A DNA stretch of 62,063 nucleotides, filler included, from Rhabdomonas costata (Eukaryota): NCBI GenBank assembly GCA_019059605.1. It is 31 parts of 31 records of this genome, joined end to end, with 100 filler letters (N's around TTAATTAATTAA, not from the genome) between each part and the next. Parts side by side here need not be neighbours in the genome. Positions count along the whole stretch, not along the records: positions 46,123 to 48,027 come from JAHMHO010007543.1; 30 more parts are not named here. One strand, given 5' to 3'. The notes under the pieces are model-generated. The model had not been told where the DNA came from. It searched no databases and saw nothing but the letters and a program-made list of their open reading frames with translations. Positions within the stretch are counted from its first letter, which is position 1. Every line of letters begins with the position of its first letter. A program made the translations under genes and the position numbers. Positions 2,134-62,063 of the stretch are shown one piece after another.

Positions 2134-2141
2134 AAGGTGGT
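2134..2141 (+). promoter_or_regulatory. Shine-Dalgarno-like motif
   Basis: AAGGTGGT ends 6 nt upstream of the thioredoxin ATG. Confidence 0.45.
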
Positions 2142-2147
2142 GTAATT

Positions 2148-2501
2148 ATGGTTGGTTTAGTTAGGGAGCTAACGGAAGGCGAATTCGACAGTCTAGTACA
2201 CGCTGGTACGGGACTTGCTCTTGTAGATTTCTGGGCCCCATGGTGTGGTCCATGTACACAGATGCTACCAGTTCTTGAGCGTCTAGCCGAAACCTTTGTC
2301 GATGAGGTAAAATTCTATAAGATCAACGTCGATGAAAATCCTGATATATCAGCCACATACAAAGTGCGAGGTATCCCGACCTTTATCCTGTTTTTCAAAG
2401 GACAAAGAGTAGCTACCAAGACTGGGATGTCTAATGAGGAGGCTATGGCGGATTGGATCCACGCTGAGCTGGAAAAATACCTAGATCAGTCTGTGGCCTA
2501 G
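2148..2501 (+). CDS. trxA: Thioredoxin, bacterial type, intronless
   Basis: Complete 117-aa ORF with the VDFWAPWCGPC active site and INVDENP, VRGIPT and FKG motifs. Confidence 0.95.
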   Translation: MVGLVRELTEGEFDSLVHAGTGLALVDFWAPWCGPCTQMLPVLERLAETFVDEVKFYKINVDENPDISATYKVRGIPTFILFFKGQRVATKTGMSNEEAMADWIHAELEKYLDQSVA

Positions 2502-2726
2502 TTCTTTAGGCAGCATTCCTAGTTTTTCTTGTGCATCTTTAATCCTGCGGTGATGTTGCAGGCAGGACTTGCAGCGTGCGAGGGGCTATCTTGCGGCCTG
2601 ATGAAGGGAAGCCAACTGCGCTGGTGAAAAACCCACTCTGCCCAAGACCTCCTCTTGCCCATACTCGATTAGTCTGTGATTTCTAGTTTTTTTATTATAA
2701 TGAGTGACCTTAATTGCGTCTCACAG

Positions 2727-3708
2727 ATGTACCACCACTGCTCAATGCCTCAAAACCAGCCTACATTGAACCATCCCTTGCTGACAATATTGTGGATATC
2801 GACATCCCCAAAAATGTCCCCCCACACGTACAATATCCGAAGAAAGCTCGAAGAGGTTGGGTCTCTTTGCTTGCGAACCCTGACCATTCCGGACTGGGCA
2901 GTGGTTGCGTTTGAGAAGGACAACAAGGCGAAGCTGGACGAATACCTGAAATCCCAGTTTGCAGCCTACACGCAAGACTTAAACCAGGTCAAGCCCGCCG
3001 TGGAGCCGCTTGCATGGCTGCAAGCAGTGGTTTTTGAGCTCTTGTACGTGGATGAGAAGAATCTCGTGCTCTGGGACTACTGTGTGAAGGCCCTCGTCGC
3101 GCACGTTCTCGAGCATCGCACTCAGGGTGCCCCTTGGCTGAAGTTTGTCACATACGCTGAAGGTTCGGCACTGGGCACACGGGACTTGAAGGAAGACGTT
3201 TCCGATAAGCTCTACCTCTATGATAAGCAGAAGATGGCGCTGCTGCTGAGCACCCAAGTGCGTGTCTACAAGGGGCCGGAATCCAAAGATGGCCAAAACT
3301 CTGCAGAGCTAGAGCCGAAGGAGAAGTTTCCCTTGATGCGTGTTGTTACCGCGGAGAAGGGATGCACCTGCTTCACGGCGAAGGGTGAACCCCTCAAGTC
3401 ATCTGGCACCCCTGCGGCATCGAAGGGAAGCACTAGCGTTGCAGACTCCAAGAAGCCGAGGAAGGATGCCAGTGCTGGAAATTCGTCTGGATGCAAGGCC
3501 ATTGCGGACCTCTCCAAGGAGCTCGAGCTGGCCTGCCTGCACTGGGCTTGGGATGGCTCGGACGGTGATAAGACCCACTTTCCGATTAACCCATACAACG
3601 CAAAGGTCTCTGCTCGAATTGAGAAGATGTACCGTCAGGGCGCCCCCTTCGTTCGCGTCTCGCCCAAGCATGCAATCTACTTCAAGGACATGATGCAACG
3701 GCAAATCG
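2727..3708 (+). CDS. Eukaryotic WWE-domain protein, large exon (partial)
   Basis: tcacag| acceptor at 2726 and G|gtttg donor at 3709. The C-terminal HWAWDG...PYNAKVSARIEKMYRQG...IYFKDMMQRQ fits a WWE domain. Confidence 0.7.
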
Positions 3709-4533
3709 GTTTGCTTGTGTTCCCCCTGTCTCCACTTGTGCGTTTGACGCAAACCGTCTTTTCATTTCCTTTTCGCGGCCGGTGGAAGGCCACACGATGA
3801 TGTTCATGTTTACGAAGGGGGTTCGGTATACTGTTCGGCTGCCCAGAGATGCCGATTTTCAATTTTAGAATTACATTTTACCGTTTAACCGCGGTAATAT
3901 TTAACATCCATTCCNNNNNNNNNNNNNNNNNNNNNNNNNNNNNNNNNNNNNNNNNNNNTTAATTAATTAANNNNNNNNNNNNNNNNNNNNNNNNNNNNNN
4001 NNNNNNNNNNNNNNGTGGTTGGTTATTTAGCAACTTTTGCTGTCCAGTCGGGCTCCGGTCACAATGCGAGAGCCACCTTGAAGACTACTACAAGTACATG
4101 GACAGCAAAAGTTGCTAAATAACTAACCAGAAAGCCGCCCCCTCGAACAAACGAAAATGATGACTCGTAGAGCAGCCTGACTCAGCTGAAGGTGAAGTGA
4201 CACCCGTAAATTCATATGTTTGGTGTGTTTGAGCGCAGGAGTGAACAGATTCAACGGCGATGCTTTTGCGCTCGGATGCTATCTTTTTGGACGCCAATCG
4301 CAAAAAAAAAAAAACCGGACATCTACACACACGCTCCCCCTTCCCCGAAGAAAGACACACTACACACTTCCCTATTCCCTATTCTGCCTCCGGAATTCTT
4401 CTGAACACGAAGAGCTCTCTCTCCTCTCCATCAGCTTCCCTCAGATTTCAGATTTCCTTAGATTTTTACTCTGCTGAGCCTCCCTCTTCGCGTTCGGACG
4501 CTCTATCTCTCTAATCAAGCCACCACTGCAAAC

Positions 4534-6024: not shown

Positions 6025-7902
6025 TCAGATGGGTGACGGTAGACCCAGCACAGCGCGGACGAAGGGACGGTATCTCCGCTCCAGGCTCTGCAGCAGCTCT
6101 CGGTGCCGTGCTACGCAGAAGCCCTCCCGGGCAGGTCCCAGCAGCAGCCTCTCCGCCAGGCAAGGAGGGGTGCACTGCGTGGCGGCCACAATGGTGGGCT
6201 GCAGGTGCTTCAGCAGGGCAAGCACCAGGTAAACCACATAGTCCACCCCTGGGTTCGGATTCACCACACAATCACCAAAACAGCAAAGACTGCGGGCCAA
6301 GCTCCTCTCCGATGGGCAATGGGGCAGCCGATCAACTGCGGCGCAAGCAGACGCTGCAGATGTTGCTGATCAGCTCCGCGTCATGTTGAGACAACAAAAT
6401 TCCAGAAACTCTTCAGTGGTTTGGCCAATGAACAGACGCGGGCACTGGTTGCAAAGCGACAATGAAGGAGGCCATGTTTCCAGCGCGCAAGACCGCGCAG
6501 TACCCCAGAGAAACGAAAAAAATTCAGGTCATGGTGTGTAGACTGCATACCTGCCACAGTTGGCACCACAATGAAGTGGAGCACATCCGCCCAGTCCAAG
6601 ACACCGACATAGTTCTGTTGCAGCCAGCTCCCCACGACCTATATACCGCACCAAGCCAGAAAGTGCAGCTGCACTACCGGAATCTGCCCACCTCCTGCCC
6701 TCCCAGCGCAATGAAGCTCAACAATTCGCAGTTTTGTGGTGAAGATGCCCTGAGGCCCAGCGGCACGAGTGCGCAGTCGAGCATATATATGTAAAGGAGA
6801 AAAAACGAGAGGCTGAGCGAGAAACCTGCGTCACAGCCAACCCGCAAATACGGAAGCAGTTAAACAGCTCCTCAAACTCCGCTTGGAGCAGGTATTCAAC
6901 AACTTGACCAAGAACCTTAAGCCGGTCTTCCACAGACTTTGCCGAGGGAAAATCCCTGAGAAAGAAGGAAAACGAGGGCAGCTATATTAGAGATGAACCT
7001 TGTTCGGGGTCATGTAAAACTGAATCCGGGTCATGTAACCCTGTATCACCAAAACGCGCCAGTAATATCTGGCTCATATTTTACGTTTGGTAGATGGTTC
7101 TGGCAAAGGCGGCGTGACCAGCAACAAAAGATGTTACGAAACCAGAAAGAGGAGGGAAGATAGGGCTCAATCTGAAGTGGGCGAGGTGGATGTGGGCCTC
7201 AAGAAGAGGACGAGAGTGAAAGGGGTTTCCGAGAGGAAGGATAGAAGAAGGCAAAGGATAAAATGGGGAAGCACACCCACAAACCCACAAATACTCTGCC
7301 CCAGGCATTCTTTTTAAAGCTCGAAGGAGGGTCAGGCAGAGGTTCTCCATGGCAGCGTTAGTCTCCAAGGGATGTGCAACCTCCTCGCCTCCCGCTCCTC
7401 CACTTCGGCAGCACACCAGGATATACAGGACATATGCAAACCAGTCCGGTGCCGCCGAAAGGCCGGACGTGATGCGGGCGGCTTCGGCGCTCACCGCAAG
7501 CATCCGCGAGATGTGCATCCCGGAAGCACTGGGCTCCACCAGGGCCAGTGTGCAGCCATACTGGACCATCAGCTGCGCTCCCAAGCGCTGAGCATGCGAG
7601 AAGGTTGAGGGATCGGACTCGCTCAAATTCTCCATCATCACGGGGACCTCGCTCCGATAAGCGGCCGTGGCGGAAAGCAAGAGCTGCAGGTAGGCGGGCT
7701 GGCAATGGTGATGCGATATTCTAGCCCGAGAGTACAACACAGGGGCTGCGGGAGCTCCGGCCCTCATCCCCTCCTCCTCCTTTGGCGAAAAGACTTCTTG
7801 TACGCTGGGCACCCTGGGCACGCCGTCAACGGACTCCAGAAAACCCTCAGGAAGCTCAGACCGCTCGGGAAGGGGCTCCTCGTGCGAGAGGAAAAACCAC
7901 AC
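6025..7902 (-). CDS. TBC1D32: BROMI/TBC1D32-like ciliary protein, 3' part, about 4 exons
   Basis: Spliced motifs DWFAYVLYIL, VEYLLQAEFEELFNCFRICGLAVTQ|VVGSWLQQNYVGVLDWADV and G|VDYVVYLVLALLKHLQ...GFCV...LERRYR follow the BROMI C-terminal domain in order. Stop at 6025-6027. Confidence 0.8.
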
Positions 7903-30462: not shown

Positions 30463-31944
30463 CATTCTGAAGTTGCTCGTAGTACTCATACTCCTGCGCA
30501 TTGAAGGTGTCGACCTTGTACCCGGAGAGGAGCAAGCACGCTAAGCACTTCTATATCAAAAGAATGTACTTCATCCTCCCCGGGAATGTGACTGCAGCTA
30601 GTTTTGATGTTGGGTTCACGGCAATCTGCTGGGGGAATTTTCCAACCCCATCTTCTAAATTCCTTCGAAATCAAACGGATTCAAACAGCATCCAACGAAT
30701 TCCATCTCCGCGACGTTCAGAGGCGCACAACTTCACCAGGTTTGAAAACCCGTACCTGGCAAGGGGCTCCATCTTTGTGGGTGATTTCTTACTCCTGTCC
30801 TCTCTCTATTGTTCTGTTTTTTTTTAGAGCGGTGGTCATGTACTTTCAGCAGCTCTCCTCTTACCTTGTTCCGACTCGTTGAATTGCCTTCTTTCCAAAA
30901 AGCAAACCATGTCTTTTTCTCTGTTTGGCTGATGGTCAATGTGCTCCTTTCAACGCCATTCGGCCTGCTTTTATTTTGCTTCTGGGTGCGATGCGTTTGC
31001 GTTTGTATCATCGCATCATTAAGAAGATTTCCCCACATTTCCCCCTCCTCCCTTTTACCTTTTTGTGGACTGAGAAATCACAGCAGAGAGCAATGTCACA
31101 GCAATATAGGGGTAAAAGAGGAGCTGCGGAATCCCACAAGTTTATTCCCAAACGGTTCTCCGAGGAAGCCGCAAAAATTGCAAGGTTGGCAGGTCCGTTC
31201 CGAAAAAAGGCAGGGGAAGACCAGGGCACACGAAGGGAAGGCGCACCAGCCCCGCTGGACCGCCTTGTGTAGACCCTCCAGGCAGTCCTTCACGGTCAGG
31301 AGGAAATGGTCGGGGTATGGGCTGGCGTCGTGGAAGGAGACGAACCCCGTAGAGAGAGGCTGCAGGATGGACATAGCCTGGGCTGGGGTCATGGAAAGCC
31401 TAAAAGTGAACAAATCATATCAGTATATGAAGGATGCCATTGATGTATACTGCTTCTACTGCGGTATGAGTTTCGCAGTGGCAAAGGATTCTGGCGCTCA
31501 AACGAAAGGCTGTTGTGAGTCGTGAATGAACCGTGTTATTTAGAGCTGTGTGGACCCAAAGCAAAGCATCTAAAAATGGGGGGATCAGAAACTCCGAAAC
31601 TTTCATCTCCAGGAGTCAGTCTGGTCAATGACCCACTTTTGAGCTGCCTCAGGACGCAAAAGGCGCACAAGCCCGTGCTCCCGCGTCTTTGAACGAGACA
31701 CACAAGATGTACCTCAGAACAGCGTAGCTTGCGATTAGGAGCGCCGCGTTGGTGCGCTTCTTGGTATCCAGACCACAGAAGAAGTACAGCCTCTTCGGGG
31801 AAAGGCTGGGGTCACGCAGTATCTCGTCCAAGTAGTCCACAAATCTCTTCAGGTGGGCCAGGTGCAAAGGTCCGAAATCCAGAAAGAAGGGCTGATAAAC
31901 CAACACGTTATCGATGGAGAAGAAGTGGGCATCACTGCGGTTAC
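30463..31944 (-). CDS. CDC14: CDC14 dual-specificity phosphatase, N-terminal domain; exons 31944-31713, 31399-31247, 30521-30463
   Basis: HFFSIDNVLVYQPFFLDFGPLHL...KKRTNAALLIASYAV, FVSFHDAS...LTVKDCLEGLHKA and GWYKVDTFNAQEYEYYEQLQNG are diagnostic CDC14 motifs. Confidence 0.95.
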
Positions 31945-32349
31945 CTAAAATGTCAAAAGCAAAAAGCAAACGTCGCCTCCACCACAAACCNNNNNNNNNN
32001 NNNNNNNNNNNNNNNNNNNNNNNNNNNNNNNNNNTTAATTAATTAANNNNNNNNNNNNNNNNNNNNNNNNNNNNNNNNNNNNNNNNNNNNGGGCAGCGGC
32101 GAGCTGCTCGCATGGGGGGAGCGCTGGGCTGTGAGAGTCGAGCATCTCCGCAAATGGTGATGTGGGTCCCCCCAGAAGGGCGAAGCTCAGCTGCCCTCCG
32201 ATGCCTTTGTGCAAGGCAACGGATACTCCGCCTGCCTCTGACACGGGAAGCGCTCCAAACCCTCGGTATCAAGGAGCACCGCTTCTCTGCTGCCGAAAGG
32301 TGTCCTAGCACGACCTGTGGTGTTGACCAGTCAGCACGGTTGAGGAGGG

Positions 32350-42112: not shown

Positions 42113-43835
42113 TGGTGTCGTTCTGAAGGGCGTCGGCGTGGGCCTGGTAGATCAACGCCAGGTCGGGGCTGCTCTCCAGCTCACTAATGGTGCGCAGCTC
42201 GCGCCCTTGTGGTTAATTGTTTTATTCTGCATACACCAAAAACTCTTGCTCTTTGTTTCGTCTCACATTAGCACTTAACTGAGACGAAATAGCAACTAGG
42301 AAAAGCGGCAGTCCAGATTCACTGGTGCACAACATGTTGAGCAGCAGAGGAGAGGGTTAGCCCACCAGACAACATCATTCCCAAGATTCAGGATGGTATG
42401 ATTGAGAGTGGAGTACAGGTTTGAACAGTGGAGGAATTTCTCGCCTTACAACAAGCAACTAGCAATACCTAGCAAAACCTACCTGGCAAAAAAAACTAGG
42501 AAACAAGGAATATACTCCATTCATACACGTCCCCTTACTTGGTCCACTTGCACGTATTTAAAAGAGAAGGCATTCCTCCCCTCCCCTTCCCAAACCGCCT
42601 CCAATATTCCATTGTCATGTTTGTGAGTTTGGAGATGGGGTAAAGGTGGAATGAATTTTCCGCTCGCACCTCTCCTCCCGCTCCCAATAGGCTGCTTCGT
42701 TTTTTTTGACCCACGATGAATCCGGTGACTGTATTGAGAAAGCGCGGAAGTCTCGAGCTGACCAAACTCGGACCCTCCCTTGACAGCGATCACAGAAGGT
42801 CAAGGTCCTGGTACGGTGCACCTATTCTGATGCAAGCCTCGCGGTCCTTCGATGTCTTCGTCCACAAAGAGAGGCGGGTGACATGGCGGCGCAGGCTGAG
42901 AACCACCCCGCAGATCTCATCGCCGTCCGAGAATTGCTCCCCGACGAGGGCCATGCACAAACGCAGCCAGGCGCTGTCCGTCTTTCCTTTTTGAAAAGCA
43001 GAGAGAAAAAAGCTGGCCGCTGAACCGGAAACAGGAGTGAAAAAGGGATCGGCACTTGCACCTGAAAGGGAAGAAAAGAGAAAAAGTGAGGGTTGAAAGG
43101 GAAGAAAAGAGAAAAAGTGAGGGTTGAAAGGGCACTTGGGTTGTGGATTGTGTGGGATACAAGACATTCCCACCAATGTCCACAAAGAGCAGCGGCACGA
43201 AACGAAGCGGGCAGCAAAACGGGCGGTTTGGAGTTGCGCACGTGGCAGGGGTAGCATGAGCACGAGTAGGAAGCTGGAGGGGCGTGGAAGAGGTTTGAAG
43301 GATGTGGTCCTGGAATTAGAGAAATTGGAAAGGAAACGAGAAGTTCTCTCTGCCCCCTGCACAACATAGAGCAGTCTGGCCGCAAGTAAAACACAACGTT
43401 TGGTGACATTGTGGTTTCCGTTACGCCCATCCGGCACCCTCGGCCTGTTCCATTCTTGAACTTTATGTGCCTTCTTCTGTTCCCTCCATTGTCAATATCA
43501 TTCTTCACCTCGCCTCACGGATGACTACCGTATAAACGGCTCCACAGGGGGGTTCTAACCGAAGAATTATTCACGTGCAATTTTCATGGCCACAGCTAAT
43601 GTTGTCAGCTGGTATCCAACGAGATGCTGATGGAGTACTTTTACGATTGATAATGCGACGAGACTGCGGTGCGCAAACCTTTCCATTTGCTGTTCATTGA
43701 AACAATCCACTTTCCCCCCTTGCGATTGCTCTCGTGCTCCCAGGCCGGCTTGATCCCCGCACGGAAAAGGTGCAGGTTGTTGCCCAGAGGAATGGACAAC
43801 GGAGGCAGCATGTTGTTGAACACACCCCAAAAACC
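42113..43835 (-). CDS. eIF4E: Translation initiation factor eIF4E, partial; exons 43835-43679, 42986-42822, 42205-42113
   Basis: Spliced GFWGVFNN...LFRAGIKPAWEHESNRKGGKW...WLRLCMALVGEQF...ICGVVLSLR...LSLWT...IGRELR...YQAHAD. All junctions are GT-AG and in frame. Confidence 0.96.
43063..43132. repeat. Tandem 31-bp duplication in an eIF4E intron
   Basis: tgaaagggaagaaaagagaaaaagtgagggt occurs twice. Confidence 0.85.
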
Positions 43836-46218
43836 CTGAGAGAGCGTGAACGTGAAAGAGTTTGCGATCAGTGGTAAGTGAGCTCAGCCGCAACTGGAGT
43901 GAGAGCAATTTGAACCCAGCGGATCGGTCCGTCAAGAAGGCGCCCGTTCCGCCTCCGTTCCGCGCTCTTCGTCGAATTCACTCTGCAACTGACCCAACCA
44001 ACCAAACACACCACACANNNNNNNNNNNNNNNNNNNNNNNNNNNNNNNNNNNNNNNNNNNNTTAATTAATTAANNNNNNNNNNNNNNNNNNNNNNNNNNN
44101 NNNNNNNNNNNNNNNNNTGTGTGGGTGGGAGAACAGGCACGCCAGCGGGTGGAAGGGCGGGAAGGTCTTCCACAGCCAGCGCGCCATGGTCAGCGGGGTG
44201 AGCAGCAGCCGCACCTCGGTAATGTGGTGGTCGGCCGGGACGCGAGAGAAGCTCGGCGGGAGGCCCATGGGAAAATCGCGGGCCCATCGATGCCACCCCT
44301 CGCCGGGCAAGGAGCGGCCAAATGGGACTCTCGAGGGATGCCAAAAAACCTTTTTCGCGGGAGGAATATTAAAGAAAGGTTTGGGAACAGGTTACAAAAT
44401 GAGAATGCATACCCGTTCGTACTTCTATCACCAACAGAGAGAGCAGAGCGAATGCATATGCCCGAATAAATATTTTACGCGAAAGATCTCCCGAAACAAT
44501 GCGGTACGGCTGGTCCTCTTACCCGCGACAGGTGCGTAAAGAAGAGCTTGACACGGATGAGTTACTTTGTGCCCTCGCACACTGGTCACAGTATCCTATG
44601 TGCACATGCGGGGGCGGCTTTCAAGCTGCCCACACCAAGTCTCGGAACACGTACAGCCACAGCAGCGAGAACATGATGATCCACAACACCAGGAAGGATT
44701 CTCGTTGCATTCAAGCGAAAATAGGGGGGGAGGGGGCAGGAAACGATCCGCTACAAGGACAAGGTGTGAAGACGTGTAGGAAGAACCCACACAGCAAACA
44801 GCAGTGGCAGAAGTATCAGGAGCGGGAAAAAGATGTGTGTGGGGATATCCACTGCTAAGCAAATGGAAGAAACCCATGCTTGCCCATAAATGATCCTCGG
44901 ATCCTAACGCTTTCAACACAGTGCAGAACGAATGACAGGTGTGCAACCGTCTGCTCTGCCCAAAGCAAAGTCATTGTACTCCTCTACTCCTCGAAGCATT
45001 ATCGGCTTGGGTGAGCCGAAGGCGGACAAATTAGCTGACTCCAGTGAAGTGGACCAGTTACGAAGAAAGCTAAAACACGATTATAGAACTCAAGTTCGGA
45101 GGGCCCTGCATAATTTTGTGTGCATGTAAAGATAGGAGGGATTAAAAGTGTATTGGTGTAAAATGTTTTCCACCAAATATTCCAAAATTTCTAACTCCTA
45201 TAACTCAAAAACCTCAAACCCAAGAGCCAAGCCTCTCAGTTGACGGTGCAGCCTTGTTTCGAGTCAAATTAACGCCGTTAAATCATCGAACGTCCCTAGC
45301 TGCAGTACATCCTCGGACGCTAAGCCGCTATGCACATCGTAAAACTCATAAACGTCGAAAGTGTTAAGTAGGGCGAAGATGTTTAATTTCGGGTTCGTCC
45401 CCCAAGGCAACCATCCGTGAGAAGAGCTTAACGGCTTATGGAGTGCTCGGAAAAAGGGTCTCCTCCTCCCTCCGCTGAATCCAACCGGAAAGAGTTGGCA
45501 CGAAGCACAGCACGGATTTTCCCTCTACGGCTCCCACGCGGAACAGCTCACGCGCGGGGCGCCCACACGGAAGTGCTCGCGCGTGGGCAGGTCACATCTT
45601 CCCCACACAATGGAACTGAGAAAAGAAAGACAGAAGCCAAACGGCCACAGCGCCTCCCAAACGGCCGCGGGACGAGAGGTCACAGGAAAAACCCTAAGAA
45701 GCGACAAGCGAGTGTACTCCACAAGAAAATGTAGAAAAAATGCACGGACACATGGCGTGCCCATCAGCCCTGGAACGCACGCACAACCGAAAAATGGCAG
45801 AGAGGTGGTGAAAAAATGTGGAGGCATTGTAAAATGTCGAGTAGGCAGGAGGAGTATTCTGGACGATCTTGCGCAAGCTGCCTTGCTTCCTGCTGAGGTA
45901 CGTTAGGTGTGCACAACCGCACCGAAGGGTGGTCCTCACCAGAAGCCAACACTCATTCTCGAAAGCTGCCCACTAAAAAACAGACAGCAAAAAGTCACCA
46001 CGAGGCACAACCAACTACCACANNNNNNNNNNNNNNNNNNNNNNNNNNNNNNNNNNNNNNNNNNNNTTAATTAATTAANNNNNNNNNNNNNNNNNNNNNN
46101 NNNNNNNNNNNNNNNNNNNNNNATACTACCACAACCAAATATACCAAAATACTCCATCAGTTCAGTGGGAAGGGCCAAGCAAGCGCGGTCTCGAAGCGGG
46201 CGGAAGTGGGGTGCATAC

Positions 46219-47991
46219 CTCGGTAGCTCCCAAGATCACCATGTCCAGCAAGTCACACACGCAACCCTTGCTGGTGGGGTTGGCGTAGGTATCGATACTA
46301 ATTTCCACGTGGCGCGAGGCGTCCTCTCGGAGCGACTTCACTGCCTCCAGATCAAAGGCCTTGGGAGGATAAAGGAAAGCTGTCATTGCAAATGCAGCTT
46401 GGGACTTGCTGGGCCATCCCTGATTTCATTTCAAATTTCTTCATCATAATCCACCCGACAAGCAATCAGCCCAGCCCCTTGCTACATCCTGACATGACCA
46501 CAGGAGAGCCAGAGCGTTTGGTAGACCCTTAGGGCAGCACACTCAAAATTCAGAGCTCAGTGAGCTGCATGGAACTTCGGGTAACCCACCACCATTTTTT
46601 TTTACCACATGCAGTGCAAATTCCGAGTAATCCACATTTTTGCAAACACCATTGTCCTCTCAAGAGCGACAAAATATATCGAAGCGTAACTCAATTGTTC
46701 CTCAGTAATATCAACCAACCCCATCTCTCTCTGGGTCAGTATGATGCCTGGCAGCACGTCAGTTTCACCACCAGATCATCGTGCAGCATCTTTACCAATG
46801 CGGCCGAGGTTCCCCCAAGAACCTTGCCTTATAATTTGTAACCCCCAAATAAACAGTAAGATGTTCGCCCAAATGCAACTCTAGATACCCCGGTGGAGCA
46901 AGTGCACGTATGCATGTGTGCGGCTGCGGGTCTGGACATTGAATCCCTCTCAATACGCAGTACCTAGACCGGATTTTCATTTCTTCTTACGTCAATCCCA
47001 CTCACCGAACAAAATGTTTCTTCCCGAGACCCCGATTTCAACTATTGGCTTTTTCACCATCTGATCAATTTTGTTGACTGACTCTTCATCTGCTTTGCGT
47101 GCACTGGAGACTCCGCTAGTGCTTCAGTGTGGGGTGAAGGTGCCTCCACCCTTTGCATTCATTAACGCAAAACCGGTGATACTTTGTCATCGACACTCTG
47201 AAGATGGAGTGCACAACGGTTCAGGAGAGGTGGGAGTTGTCTGACACATCACACCGGAAACGATCTTCGAGGGGTCCCCGAGGGACTCCACCACCACCAC
47301 AAAGTCAACTTGGGAGCCCGGAATGGAGATGGGCACCACTGGGAAGGGTACAAGGTGGTCGGTAACCACAATCACTGTTTTGGCTAGAAGCGCATCAGCG
47401 TGAGCATAGGAAAGAGGCCCACACGCCGATGGCCCACTGAAAGATTGGTGGGGACAAAAACCCAATGAGGCAGTGGTGAGAAGAAGGGATGCCTTGCCAG
47501 AGTATGAACAAACCACTACTGAATCAATTGCACCACAAAGAAGTCTGTGACTCATGACCACACCAACCCCTGTGATGAACTAAGCCCAGTCCCCGAGGAG
47601 CCATTGGCGAACGCCAACAACATCACGACCACACGAAGAGGAAGATGTCTATCCTCTCCGCATGAGGCATGAGGCATGAGGTGAATCCGTGCATCGGATT
47701 ATTGGAGTTCTCCGATCAAATTAAGAAACCAACTCAAACCCATATTCATCACATTTTTCAACAACGGATAGGTTCCCTGATGTCTGCTGGTGTTTGGCAT
47801 TGTCCATCCTGTCCATATGCATGCCCATTGCAGGTGCAAAAAGATGGCAACCTACCCCACGCCGTTGCAATTGCCAAACTCATCGGCCGTGGGAGCAGCA
47901 ATGACCGCGATATCCACGCAGAGTTCACCCTGGTGCAGGGCGCGCACCCGACCGCCGTGCGAGCGAAGCACTGCAACTCCAGGCATCTTCC
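46219..47991 (-). CDS. citF: Citrate lyase alpha chain / citrate CoA-transferase, intron-containing, partial; exons 47991-47856, 47436-47255, about 46827-46748, 46359-46219
   Basis: LRSHGGRVRALHQGELCVDIAVIAAPTADEFGNCNG, GPSACGPLSYAHADA...VDFVVVVESLGDPSKIVSG, LGGTSAALVKML...Q|AFDLEAVKSL and HVEISIDTYANPTSKG...LDMVILGATE are collinear with bacterial CitF. Confidence 0.92.
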
Positions 47992-49274
47992 CTATAATCA
48001 CACACCACAATGACGGCCACAACAACCNNNNNNNNNNNNNNNNNNNNNNNNNNNNNNNNNNNNNNNNNNNNTTAATTAATTAANNNNNNNNNNNNNNNNN
48101 NNNNNNNNNNNNNNNNNNNNNNNNNNNCCGAAGGGAGGGAAGGGTCGGGGTTGCTCAGTTGCTCAATCCTTCCATTTTCCTTCATAGTCGAGCACCCCAC
48201 CCTTCACCCATGACTAAGCTATCTTCGGTTTTCAATGGAAAAATGGTTTTTGTCGTAGCGTCAGTCCACGGCAGCATCAGTATGAAAATACAGAAGTTAG
48301 TGGGTGCAAAAGAACAGCGAAGACAACTTTGGGAGACCTTGCAAGCCGTAGGAGGCCACCACGGCAAACACACCACCACCAACAACAACTGGGGTCCCAT
48401 TTCTCAGTGGCCCAAACTACATCTGTTGAATTTTTATACTGACACTACAAGGAGAGAATACTCTTGTAGGGATACGGTTACCGGAGGTGTACGCGGGGGC
48501 TGGAAGAGCGCGGAAGTTCGAGCTGACGGCGGGAGAAGAGGAGACGGCGTAGTAGTCTGCCGTGGTGGAGAACATGGACGGAGACCGAGAGGAGGCGGAG
48601 GAACCCGGGAACTGTTGCTGCTGAGGATCAAGGAGAGAATTGAATGCAGAGCATGTTGGAGTCGTCACAGAACACAGAAGAATAACACCCACCCACCAGT
48701 CCATACCAATCCCCAACACCCAACGCGTGATCACAATCTTCTTAAAAGAGGATTTACTCATTCTTAAGGTTTTGGGCCTTTATTGACGTTCTTTTCGTGT
48801 GTCTCAAAACGGCATCCCACCAGGGGGTGAAAATCTGATGGAGCTGCCCCCCTTCCACCGGCTAAAACGACAACTTTTGGGCCACGTCGCCCGTCTCTTC
48901 CAGCATTGTCCAAAACTGGGGGGGGGGGTGCGAGATCATCCATTTTTGCGTCCAAGCCACAGACTGCTCCTTATGAGCGCAAGACAACGTCAAGGGGACA
49001 AATATTCTATTTTATTGCTTCTTTCCTGAATCGCTTTATCGGCCGCACGCTTACTGAACATTCTTTCGCCCTGTACTGCCGTTGTCAGCTCTTGCAGTTT
49101 CGACTCTCTGTCGCGCCGTCTGGTGGTGAGGGAGTGCATGAGCCAACTCAGCATTCCAGATAATTAATGGAACTTATCAACCTGCCCCCCAACCAAAAAA
49201 AAACTCTTGTTAAGGTAAATCGTCTCGGACTTTGCGGCAACTTGCAGTTCAAGCTAAACATTCTGCAGCTATAC

Positions 49275-57915: not shown

Positions 57916-58391
57916 CTGGCCCAAAATCGACACCAGATAGCCCCATGTCACTTTCATAAGCAGGTTCTGACGCAGTTTACTCAGTTCCTGTGCTCGGAAA
58001 ATGAACGTCACCAGAGGTGGGAAGACAGAACATTTACCGCAACCAACCCCCCNNNNNNNNNNNNNNNNNNNNNNNNNNNNNNNNNNNNNNNNNNNNTTAA
58101 TTAATTAANNNNNNNNNNNNNNNNNNNNNNNNNNNNNNNNNNNNNNNNNNNNTTGTGGGTGGTGTAGGAACATAAATACTGGAAAAAAAAGTACAAAAAT
58201 GGAGACCCGCTTGGGCCCACAGCTTTTCACAGTTTTTCCCTGCTGGGATGAGGAAGGTCATGCGGGATCCTTCGCCATGCACAGGCACACACTTACGGGT
58301 CTTTCGCACCCTCTACCTGCACACACCACGCTCCACCTTGTGTCTGTCAAGAGTTGCGTGGTCAGAAATGAGGGTCTGTGCTGGGTCATAG

Positions 58392-58690
58392 CGCTGTACT
58401 CCTGGACTACGGTATCCACCAGCGCCACCCCTTCGGGCACGTATCCCCGCGCCGCGCACTGCACGATGACCGTCGGGAATGCGCTGCTGATGATCGCCGG
58501 GTATACCGGGTATCAAAATAAAAATTTTGCCCTGAACGACGTGTTGTGGAGCACGGACGGGGTGTCGTGGACCCAGAGCACCACTGCGGCGTTCTCCTGG
58601 CCGCGGTGGCAAATGGGCTGCGGGGTGCTTGGGTCTCGAGCCTACGTCGTGGGCGGAGTAGACGCCACCTGGTCCCAATACTCAAGCGAG
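58392..58690 (+). CDS. Kelch-repeat protein exon
   Basis: PRAAHC...LLMIAG...LNDVLWSTDGVSW...PRWQMGC...AYVVGG Kelch motifs follow a catag acceptor. Confidence 0.8.
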
Positions 58691-60158
58691 GCATGCTATG
58701 CAGTGTGGGTTGGGTATTGCAGTGCGTGTGGCAGAGTCCCGTACCGCTAACCACAAGTGGCTTGTGGCTTGTCCGATAGCAGACATCAGCATTGACCCAG
58801 AAATGTGCAAGGCAGGCATTCGCATTTGTCAGTGAAGTCATCTTTCGATCGACCCACCATCCTCTGCGCTCTTCTTTGTTCGACCAGTGCCGTTCTCTGC
58901 GGACCTAATGCCTCAAAACTCCGTAAACAGGATGGGGTGGATAAGGTCTCCAGTGTGGAAGTACAAGGTCAAGAGGAACCGTACGTGCGCCTCGATCGCA
59001 GGAAGTCTGATCTGCGTAGGCAAGAGTATTTTTCGCGGGTGAGCCAAACACTATTTTTGCACCCTTCACCATTTTGCATGAGCGAACCCGTAACTTGCGC
59101 AGGTCACAGGTCGGGAGGGCGTATCTCCTGTTATGTTACATGCGCTGATATTGCGCCCCGTATACGAATATGGCGTAACAGAGATAAGAAACAAAAATAG
59201 GGCATCATCGTACTGCAGATGCCACACGCGTGCCGAAGGAGGAGGCAGCGCCTTTGGACAATACGCGTATCAGGATTGCATTGCTGTCCCGAACCGCCGC
59301 AGGCCCGTTGCAGAGGGCATGGTGGGGATACTGATAGTGTTCGCCGGTATCCCCATATTTTCGTAAACGGAAAATGCGAAGAAAAAAACACGGAGTCGGA
59401 CTTTTGGACAGACATACAAAAAAACAATCTCTCGTACCCTGCTGTGGCACCAAAAAAACAAATATCTTCAGTTTTTCCTCGTCTTTCTCCTTGCCAAGAG
59501 GTGTCCTGATACCAAAAACTGCAATTGGACCTATTTTCACCTCGGCGCAACAGATCTGCTGCATTTTAACGGGGTAGCCTCCGCAAACTCTTGGTACCCC
59601 CAGTACTTGAGCCGACCACTTCTAATGGCTCTGTGCATATGCTCGGATGCGGCCGTGGAGTGATGAAAAAAATACGAAATTCCCTGGGCGATGCCGGAAT
59701 TCCGAAGTAAAAGAAGAAAATATGAAAAGAACGAAAATTTATACAAAAATACGATTTTTTTTGAAAAAGTGGGAAACCATGGGATACCTGAATTAGGTCG
59801 CTGATGATCACCCCTGTCTGGGCGCTTGACGATGGGGCGATAGGGCCGTCGATCCCCAACCTTTACCAAAGCGCGAGGGGTTGGTACCAGATTCTCCGCA
59901 CGTGTACAAAAACAAAGTGGTCCCTTAAAATCTGCCATCAGCGGGAGACGGCATCTTATCCCGTCAAGAAATAGATTTGGTGGCAGGGCGGTAATAAAAT
60001 TCTATTCAATGCACGTCTCTAACCCCTCCAAAGATATGCAATAGCCTAACCCAACCCCNNNNNNNNNNNNNNNNNNNNNNNNNNNNNNNNNNNNNNNNNN
60101 NNTTAATTAATTAANNNNNNNNNNNNNNNNNNNNNNNNNNNNNNNNNNNNNNNNNNNN

Positions 60159-62063
60159 GTGTGGTGGTGGACGCCGGGGCAGATGGCCCTGCAACCTCTT
60201 TGCGCAGGACACCGAGCCGCAGTGCGGACAGCCGCGGCTGAGCTTGAAGCGGCTCCCTTTCATTGGCGGCAGAGAGTGGTGAGCGGGCCCCCACAGATGC
60301 ACCCCCGGTGGCGGGGGTTTGCTTTGAAGCTGCACCCGCAACCACGGGCAGAGGCGTCACAAAGTTGAACGCAGCCCCTCCACTAGGAGAGCGACTAACG
60401 GTGAGCTGTGCCCCCATCAGCTCCGCCAGGCCAGCACAGTTGGCCAGGCCCAGACCCAGGCAGACGGCCGCTGTACCCTCCCCCTCCTCGTGCTCCGGGG
60501 AGTTCCCATCCAAAACCTCAAACTTGGGCTTGAACAGGCTGGAGACCTTCTCTTCCGGGATCCCCTCCCCACTGTCCTTCACAGCAAACTCAACCTGGTC
60601 CTCCTCGGGGGACCTGCTGGCACTCAGCGTGATGCAACCCTCAGAGCAGTGCTTCACGGCGTTGCGCAGCAGGCGGTTCAAGACAGCTTCCACAACGGCC
60701 CGGTCCCCACAACGGGTCTCTGCTTCAGGGGGCAGGTCAGCGCTCACCTCCAGCCAACGCCTGGCCCCGCCTCCCTCAGCTTCCCGGTTGACAATCGGCT
60801 CCCATCGGTCCTGCAAGCTTCGCAGCATTCGCCGCACGTTGAAATCTGCCGGAACGAGCGGGATTGCTTTTGCCGCAAGCCGTGCATACCACAGCAGGTC
60901 CTCAGAGCGCAAGCTGAGGGAGCACAAGCAGATACCACGTTAAGATGTACACAAAAACACACACAGGGGGGAGAATGCACCGAAGAAGACCAACGCGGAG
61001 GGATCAAATTTTCGGGGACACTTCCCGAGTGTGCCAACTCGGATTCCCTTGAAGGACACCGGATCACGGATTGACGAAGCTCTACATCGAGGTTGAAAAC
61101 CGCTCCGAAAAGCGTTGTCGTGCAGCTGCACTGAGTTTGCACCGAGGTTTACCTCAAACCAACAACTCGGTACTGCTCAGATGTTTGTTTCTGTATGCAC
61201 TCACACAGCCGTACGGAAAGCTGAATAAATCCTGAGACAAAAAAGTCACGGCAAACACCTAAGGTCCTCACAGGTCTCCAGAATGGTCCCCACCCTGGTG
61301 TCCTGCTCAGGATCAGCGAGCAGCCCTACCGTGGAGCTTATTACACCCACAGCGGAGCCCATGTTGTGAGAAACCGTGGAGATCAACCGCTGGAACGACG
61401 CCCTCTGGCGATCCTGTGAGCAGCGCGGAATCAGTGGCTCTCAATGCGGCCACAGGAAGGACGTACGCCGTCATTGCATCGGGCCGTTGTCAAGCACACA
61501 AATGCAAAATCAATGGAAGCATCGCATGCACGCACCATTTCTTCGTTAAGGTCATCCATCATGCGGAGCAAGGCGTGTATTGTTCTCGTCATGGCCTCCA
61601 CCGTGAGCATCACGGCCAGCTGACACAGGTAGGCAGCTATGACATCAAACCTGGGGACGAAAACAGAAAGAAGGGCTCCTACCACAAAAACCGCACGTGA
61701 ATACACGTCAATCTGTGTCCTGCTGCTATAGATATATACACTTTACCGGAAAGCATCCTATTCTGCGTAATATGGCCCACGGCATATCAAAAGAAAGTGT
61801 TAGGGAAAGACATCTTCTTGCATACAAAAGAATGCAAAAACGCGCAGCTCACCATATAATTTGAAGGGCGGTATCTCGAGCAGCGTCCGTGGTGCGCAGG
61901 ATGGCGACGCCGGCCAGGATGTACCACACCGTGTGCAGCGAAATCAGGATGGACATCCCCACGGCGCCCCCTCCACAAACCCGGAAGATCACTGCGGCGA
62001 ACACCACCAGGGACATCTGCAGAATCCACAGCTTACCCATCCCCGGGGCCCCCTTCCAATAAC
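60159..62063 (-). CDS. Membrane sensor histidine kinase (TM bundle - coiled coil - HisKA - HATPase_c), partial; exons 62063-61853, 61650-61536, 61413-61259, 60913-60159
   Basis: All junctions are GT-AG and in frame. H-box-like STVSHNMG, N box LLRNAVKH, G1 VKDSGEGI, F box LFKP, G2 LGLGLA. Confidence 0.92.

Follow-up and report, generated by a model that had tools for sequence, protein, structure and literature searches.

A contig of about 1.9 kb in the Rhabdomonas costata assembly GCA_019059605.1 probably holds the central third of a nuclear gene, interrupted by introns, for CitF, a prokaryote-derived protein which groups with homologues from the protists Anaeramoeba and Barthelona, and a segment of the conserved core has been lost from this copy or mis-assembled. 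The contig was analysed as part of a stretch of 62,063 nucleotides, to which we refer as the window. CitF is the alpha subunit of the citrate lyase that works without adenosine triphosphate (ATP), where it acts as citrate coenzyme A (CoA) transferase. The bacterial-type citrate lyase is regarded as an enzyme of prokaryotic fermentation, and eukaryotes are described with ATP-citrate lyase. An earlier note on this DNA had described the gene as a bacterial CitF domesticated in a eukaryote, and here we examine its structure, completeness and relatives.

CitF identity and exon-intron structure

Searching six minus-strand stop-to-stop open reading frames (ORFs) of the contig against Pfam with hmmscan assigned three of them to CitF (PF04223) above the 27-bit cutoff, namely ORF 47852-48025 (41.9 bits, profile positions 99-137), ORF 47187-47579 (60.2 bits, positions 134-205) and ORF 46162-46425 (34.1 bits, positions 285-334). 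A second profile was built from 15 close homologues (alignment A1) and run on all 105 contig ORFs of at least 8 residues, from both strands. It matched the same three segments (E 8e-22, 1.6e-34 and 4.3e-17, respectively) and a fourth one at 46739-46828 on the minus strand (E 0.0021, profile positions 314-339), while no other CitF-like ORF rose above noise on either strand. The assignment to CitF made in the earlier note is therefore upheld by hidden Markov models, in three exons of four above the Pfam cutoff and in the fourth by the A1 profile.

The four segments correspond to exons E1 to E4 (Table 1), which are numbered here against P0003, a close homologue of ~526 residues. E1 is bounded by an AG at 47993-2 and a GT at 47855-4 (gtaggt); it starts with GG, which completes a codon, and its terminal GG together with the first T of E2 gives a Gly. 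E1 is 53–74% identical to the 15 homologues. The 5′ boundary of E2 is set by the AG at 47438-7, its frame is capped by an in-frame TGA at 47189-47187, and the actual 3′ end of the exon falls within the range from 47220 to 47190. E3 starts at 46827 or 46822 and ends with TGC TGC CAG, followed by a GC donor at 46747-6; it matched P0003 with an E-value of 5e-4, and 14 of the 15 homologues aligned to it in tblastn at 33–50% identity. The junction of E3 and E4 reads CQ|AFD, as it does in the homologues. E4 (51–67% identity to the homologues) lies between an AG at 46361-0 and a GT at 46218-7, and the invariant LGATE ends the exon with the GT directly after it. The outer limits first proposed for the gene, 46219 and 47991, coincide exactly with exon ends.

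Joining E1 to E2 (GT-AG) and E3 to E4 (GC-AG) brings the residues back to the spacing seen in the homologues, without insertion or deletion. Successive exons are in different genomic frames, all on the minus strand, and reading past the donors meets a TAG one codon beyond E1 and a TGA three codons beyond E3. The exons have a GC content of 56–64% (60–74% at third codon positions, GC3), versus 46–48% in the introns. Taken together, the frame shifts between exons, the stops and the splice boundaries that restore collinearity indicate neither a bacterial ORF nor a chance match, and the gene is a member of the CitF family with predicted introns of the spliceosomal type.

The earlier proposal of four collinear exons with in-frame junctions hence stands for the first and the last junction, which are exact, but not for the one between E2 and E3, where ~51 conserved residues are skipped. 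Its argument that the gene is not simple bacterial contamination also holds. In a first search with E2 the best matches were all prokaryote-like metagenome proteins, as would be expected if the contig were bacterial or archaeal contamination, or the resemblance fortuitous; such an origin is refuted by the intron structure, since four CitF segments in four frames are separated by stop-containing gaps of 388–419 nt with canonical splice boundaries and exact collinearity, and the E-values of the segments reach 1.6e-34. We consider it hardly credible.

Completeness and the missing core segment

The contig covers residues 149-264 and 316-386 of P0003, or ~187 of ~526 residues (~36%), and the N-terminal 148 and the C-terminal ~140 residues fall beyond the contig ends. 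Accordingly, the contig does not hold the complete two-domain protein of ~510–540 residues. In addition, residues 265-315 (~51 residues) are absent between E2 and E3. No ORF of the contig matched this part of the A1 profile, and local alignments of the segment from four homologues in each of the three frames of the E2-E3 interval were no better than chance in 12 cases out of 12, scoring 17–26 versus shuffle means of 21–25. With tblastn, the 15 homologues gave weak look-alikes at most in the interval.

In the AlphaFold (AF2) model of P0003 (mean predicted local distance difference test score, pLDDT, 85.2), the residues that are missing open the C-terminal domain, as a helix (264-277), a strand (286-289) and a second helix (293-309). 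Alignment A1 has 124 invariant columns, 56 of which are off the contig, 12 in the missing middle (including QAGAGG) and 56 covered. Among the covered ones 54 are kept, the two changes being G331D and T359I. This degree of retention indicates selection on the gene, either current or until recently, and the high conservation of the exons argues against an old pseudogene.

Two in-frame direct joins of E2 to E3 are available, either from a GC at 47212-11 to the AG at 46829-8 or from a GT at 47252-1 to the AG at 46824-3, so a four-exon model is possible, with a product that skips the 265-315 segment. As that segment with its QAGAGG loop is absent, the copy on the contig cannot make a complete enzyme, and, judging from the modelled structure, a product that skips it is unlikely to be a working transferase. 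The word "domesticated", in the sense of a working gene, is thus not sustained for this copy, with ~36% of the protein on the contig and a conserved core with 12 invariant residues absent. This copy may have lost an exon recently, as a pseudogene or a truncated paralogue, or the exon may have been dropped by a fragmented assembly.

If the exon was dropped, the gene could be intact and working, with the gap an assembly artefact and the true locus coding for a complete CitF which, together with CitE and CitD, would form a citrate lyase. The retention of the covered invariant positions would fit ongoing purifying selection, the assembly is in pieces of ~1.9 kb, and the relatives from Anaeramoeba and Barthelona are full length. 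On the other hand, the interval between E2 and E3 (~390 nt) equals the two verified introns in size and GC content, no repeat able to explain an assembly collapse was found in the contig, and the in-frame direct joins are at hand. We regard an intact locus as possible, though doubtful on balance.

Alternatively, the middle of the protein might come from a strongly diverged exon at ~47115-47006 on the minus strand, possibly with more of the frame downstream of E2, giving a CitF-derived enzyme in which the C-terminal domain begins in a remodelled form and which might serve in a new role as a stand-alone CoA-transferase. This candidate exon has a strong G|gtgagt donor at 47005, whose phase fits the acceptor at 46829-8, and the tblastn look-alikes in the interval include GFALMNAKGG against GFSFQ[AT]G[AS]GG of the homologues. 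However, the alignments score like those of shuffled sequences, the GC content of the candidate (45%, GC3 47%) is that of an intron and its GC3 is below the 60–74% of the real exons, it is cut off from E2 by two TGA codons in frame, and such an exon would cost the 12 invariant residues. A search with its translation found no match among 1.84 billion representatives, a result of low power with a query of 36 residues. We find a diverged exon unlikely. Read-through of the TGA that caps E2 was also considered and rejected: the composition beyond it is intron-like, the protein would exceed the expected length by 23 residues, and no other gene in the window needs such read-through.

Relatives and phylogeny

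Of 946 candidates from a search with E2, 896 were relatives. The best 120 of these 896 were 57–75% identical to E2 and all carried PF04223, and those with a name were bacterial. A second search with P0003 as query retrieved named eukaryotes, namely Anaeramoeba and Barthelona. Over 190 aligned columns, the window CitF was closest to P0001 (61.1% identity) and then to P0003 (60.5%).

For the trees, rows at least 72% identical to a kept row were removed, and the out-groups were thinned further in the two smaller trees; the window row fills 35% of the columns. Three trees agree in placing the window CitF in a clade of 17 rows, with an SH-like support (Shimodaira-Hasegawa) of 98 in FastTree (86 rows), an approximate likelihood ratio (SH-aLRT) support of 99 in a quick IQ-TREE run with LG+G4 (53 rows), and an ultrafast bootstrap (UFBoot) of 100 with an SH-aLRT of 99 in a careful IQ-TREE run with LG+G4 (41 rows). 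Besides the window sequence, the clade includes one row from Barthelona, four from Anaeramoeba and eleven rows with no taxon name (P0001, P0003, P0004, P0129-P0131, P0133-P0136 and P0138). All five named rows are eukaryotic. Within the clade the window CitF pairs with P0003 (support 80/85), which is its closest relative, rather than with Anaeramoeba.

In the trees the clade lies amid CitF proteins of archaea and bacteria that belong to citD-citE-citF operons, which indicates that prokaryotes were, at some stage, the source of the gene. In the nearest prokaryotic loci, from metagenome-assembled genomes (MAGs) of Theionarchaea, Thermoplasmata, DHVE2 and WOR-3, genes for an acyl carrier protein (ACP/CitD) and for CitE are directly upstream of citF in five of six; the sixth is cut at its start. 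CitE in these loci consists of HpcH_HpaI plus C-C_Bond_Lyase. The association of CitF with citrate lyase, on which the earlier note had relied, is accordingly confirmed for the nearest prokaryotic relatives. When P0003 was compared with GTDB genomes, the best identity among the matches listed was 54%, which is a weak indication that GTDB holds no closer prokaryotic relative. In metagenomes of the Joint Genome Institute (JGI), 83 of 596 candidate stretches were related (best 70%), all of them prokaryote-like, and no close relative bearing introns was found among them.

The lateral transfer proposed earlier therefore holds in so far as a prokaryote-derived CitF is present in a eukaryote, but the window gene does not stand alone, as it shares a clade with Anaeramoeba ignava, A. 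flamelloides and Barthelona sp. PAP020. The earlier note had also allowed that a place in an already known eukaryotic clade would lower the novelty of the gene. Such relatives are already in NCBI and EukProt, but we found no paper that describes the clade.

Comparison with known systems

The window CitF resembles prokaryotic CitF in its family, recognized by profile in four exons, and in 54 of the 56 invariant positions that the exons cover, including the LGATE of E4. P0003 matches 2hj0_A (E 1.7e-138) and 1xr4_A (E 1.5e-125), from the solved structures 2HJ0 and 1XR4 of prokaryotic CitF (PF04223). The window CitF differs from prokaryotic CitF in having at least three introns, in belonging to a eukaryotic assembly, and in being present over ~36% of its length without the QAGAGG segment.

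The Anaeramoeba proteins, deposited as "citrate lyase alpha chain", fall in the same clade, and one from A. ignava (P0128) is 50–71% identical to the window exons. They are encoded by eukaryotic nuclear genes on contigs of 0.1–8.4 Mb and, unlike the window copy, are full length (518–531 aa) with the middle segment. A. ignava has three members, two of them with NCBI accessions (KAJ5079371.1 and KAJ5066461.1). For A. flamelloides, nine CitF sequences fall in one 90% cluster (P0132 and P0247-P0254, including KAJ3434355.1), of which eight are from NCBI, on different contigs of 0.46–8.4 Mb, and one is from EukProt. CitF is multi-copy in A. flamelloides, or the copies are split over its two sequenced strains.

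The first branch of the clade is a transcript-derived protein of Barthelona sp. PAP020 (P0137, EukProt EP00792 P006733), a single chain of 920 aa with CitF at residues 57-524, an ACP/CitD-like linker at 535-606 and CitE at 635-902. The CitE part is recognized by PF03328 plus PF15617, and the linker matches the CitD/ACP family PF06857 over profile positions 11-82 of 83 with an E-value of 2.7e-4 and 21.6 bits, which is short of the cutoff of 25.1. This chain may thus unite all three subunits of citrate lyase. The fusion suggests, from its predicted domains, that CitF of the eukaryotic clade still acts as part of a citrate lyase rather than as a free-standing transferase.

With the eukaryotic ATP-citrate lyase (ACL/ACLY), the net outcome is the same, as citrate is cleaved into oxaloacetate plus an acetyl unit. 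This enzyme is unrelated to CitF in family and mechanism, and it depends on ATP and free CoA. The window gene has none of the ACL domains of Pfam.

Several points weigh against reading the contig as part of a nuclear CitF gene of a eukaryotic clade with its core segment lost or mis-assembled. The splicing is deduced from sequence. Among the 16 other members of the clade, 11 have no taxon name, and both eukaryotic and prokaryotic sequences may be included. The sister of the clade is a protein from a Euryarchaeota MAG, with support (67/52) too weak to single out a prokaryotic donor. It would be strange for one whole structural unit, and nothing else, to have been lost so neatly, and a fault in the assembly is just as possible. 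Finally, the donor phase of the candidate exon would supply the Gly of the homologues (GW[AV]NGG versus G-KVLGG), and there may be a diverged middle exon. We still consider the partial nuclear CitF gene the probable explanation.

Setting of the contig in the window

The window consists of 31 contigs of 1899–1909 bp each, chained by 30 linkers of the form N44-TTAATTAATTAA-N44. Because the contigs are chained, sequence beyond 46123-48027 gives no genomic context for the CitF gene, and genes separated by a linker are no sound basis for any claim in the window. No other part of the window is similar to the CitF contig. Its composition is typical of the assembly, with a trinucleotide make-up that ranks 19th of the 31 contigs in distance from the window mean.

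A Pfam scan of 250 ORFs from the window (100 + 150) detected eukaryotic genes on other contigs, including those for eIF4E, a CDC14-type phosphatase (DSPn), BROMI_C and Kelch repeats (Table 1). No partner gene of citrate lyase was found among these ORFs from other contigs. The CDC14-type phosphatase (31099-31990, minus strand) is encoded by two exons, which match DSPn at profile positions 6-94 and 94-140, and its intron of ~314 nt (GT...ttttag) shows the same contrast of GC-rich exon and GC-poor intron as the CitF gene. The eukaryotic gene content and this pattern of introns and GC point to an assembly from a flagellated eukaryote. The first exon of the CDC14-like gene has a single relative, 46% identical (232 candidates in a search of 5.8 billion proteins), which suggests that the lineage is very poorly sampled.

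A contig of 1.9 kb, linked to nothing, might also come from a different eukaryote, such as a co-cultured or contaminating anaerobic protist, and all the named relatives in the clade are anaerobic protists. Its trinucleotide make-up, however, is that of the other contigs, and its exon-intron contrast in GC and its style of intron match those of the CDC14-like gene on another contig. A foreign eukaryotic source is, in our view, improbable.

Other features of the window were noted in passing. The contig at 52138-54042 is a clear outlier among the 31, with a GC content of 34%, a trinucleotide distance of 0.089 (median ~0.023) and AT-rich low-complexity stretches, and the single ORF scanned from it had no Pfam match. 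It was considered as an organelle fragment, for which there was no support and no sign of an organelle gene. An open frame of 375 residues at 2673-3797 (plus strand) has no Pfam family and no usable match in the ESM Atlas, and could be either a protein specific to the lineage or an ORF that is long by chance. Scans of the window for Rfam families and for tRNAs gave no match each.

Table 1. Coordinates of the CitF gene parts and of other Pfam-annotated features in the window
Feature	Position	Strand	Remarks
Contig with CitF gene	46123..48027		1905 bp; linker on both sides; neighbours are unrelated contigs
Upstream intron, 3′ end, cut at contig edge	47992..48027	-	ttatag; acceptor AG 47993-47992; CitF homology only after AG
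Exon E1	47856..47991	-	P0003 ~149-192; 41.9 bits; E 8e-22; GC 64%
Intron 1	47437..47855	-	419 nt; gtaggt...tttcag (GT-AG); GC 48%; no CitF homology
Exon E2, homology-supported part	47220..47436	-	P0003 ~193-264; 60.2 bits; E 1.6e-34
Intron-like interval E2-E3	46828..47219	-	~390 nt; GC 45-50%
Exon E3	46748..46827	-	P0003 ~316-340; E 0.0021; GC 56%
Intron 3	46360..46747	-	388 nt; gcatca...cccaag (GC-AG); GC 46%
Exon E4	46219..46359	-	P0003 ~341-386; 34.1 bits; E 4.3e-17; GC 57%, GC3 74%
Next intron, 5′ end, cut at contig edge	46123..46218	-	gtatgc; no homology downstream of 46219
Thioredoxin	2136-2498	+	Pfam
BROMI_C (ciliary Broad-minded) fragment	6028-6369	-	Pfam
eIF4E exon	42793-43491	-	Pfam
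Kelch repeats	58154-58747	+	Pfam
HATPase_c (histidine-kinase-like ATPase) domain in 260-residue open frame	60160-60939	-	Pfam

Proposed function and significance

We propose that the CitF gene was acquired from prokaryotes and that introns were gained afterwards. By analogy with its family, an intact CitF would move the thioester carrier, either the CoA-like arm of CitD or free CoA, from acetate to citrate, by which acetate would be released and a citryl-thioester made. CitE would then split the citryl-thioester into oxaloacetate and an acetyl-thioester without ATP. It is further possible, although we put this forward tentatively and somewhat short of probable, that several anaerobic or microaerophilic protist lineages share a full, functional citrate lyase independent of ATP, acquired laterally and made up of CitF, CitE and a carrier like CitD. 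These lineages would be Barthelona, where it would be fused, Anaeramoeba, where it would be multi-copy, and the window organism, where introns would have been gained later, and the enzyme would have gone unremarked in work on anaerobic metabolism of protists, where ATP-citrate lyase alone is discussed.

A full-text literature search, with supplements and subscription papers outside its scope, found no paper on CitF or on a CitDEF-type lyase in eukaryotes. Citrate cleavage in protists is treated as a matter of ATP-citrate lyase alone in the pertinent passages of PMC11976288, bioRxiv 10.64898/2026.09.23.753574, PMC8887013 and PMC8611851.

As the Anaeramoeba proteins had already been deposited as citrate lyase alpha chains, the window gene represents a further lineage of a kind present in databases. 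Taken alone it adds little, being a partial copy, possibly defective or mis-assembled, on an unlinked contig of 1.9 kb; the more interesting lead is the whole clade with its Barthelona fusion. The window gene indicates that CitF has been part of a eukaryotic genome for long enough to acquire introns. Its grouping with the Anaeramoeba and Barthelona proteins suggests that citrate cleavage without ATP is one more laterally acquired module of anaerobic protist metabolism.

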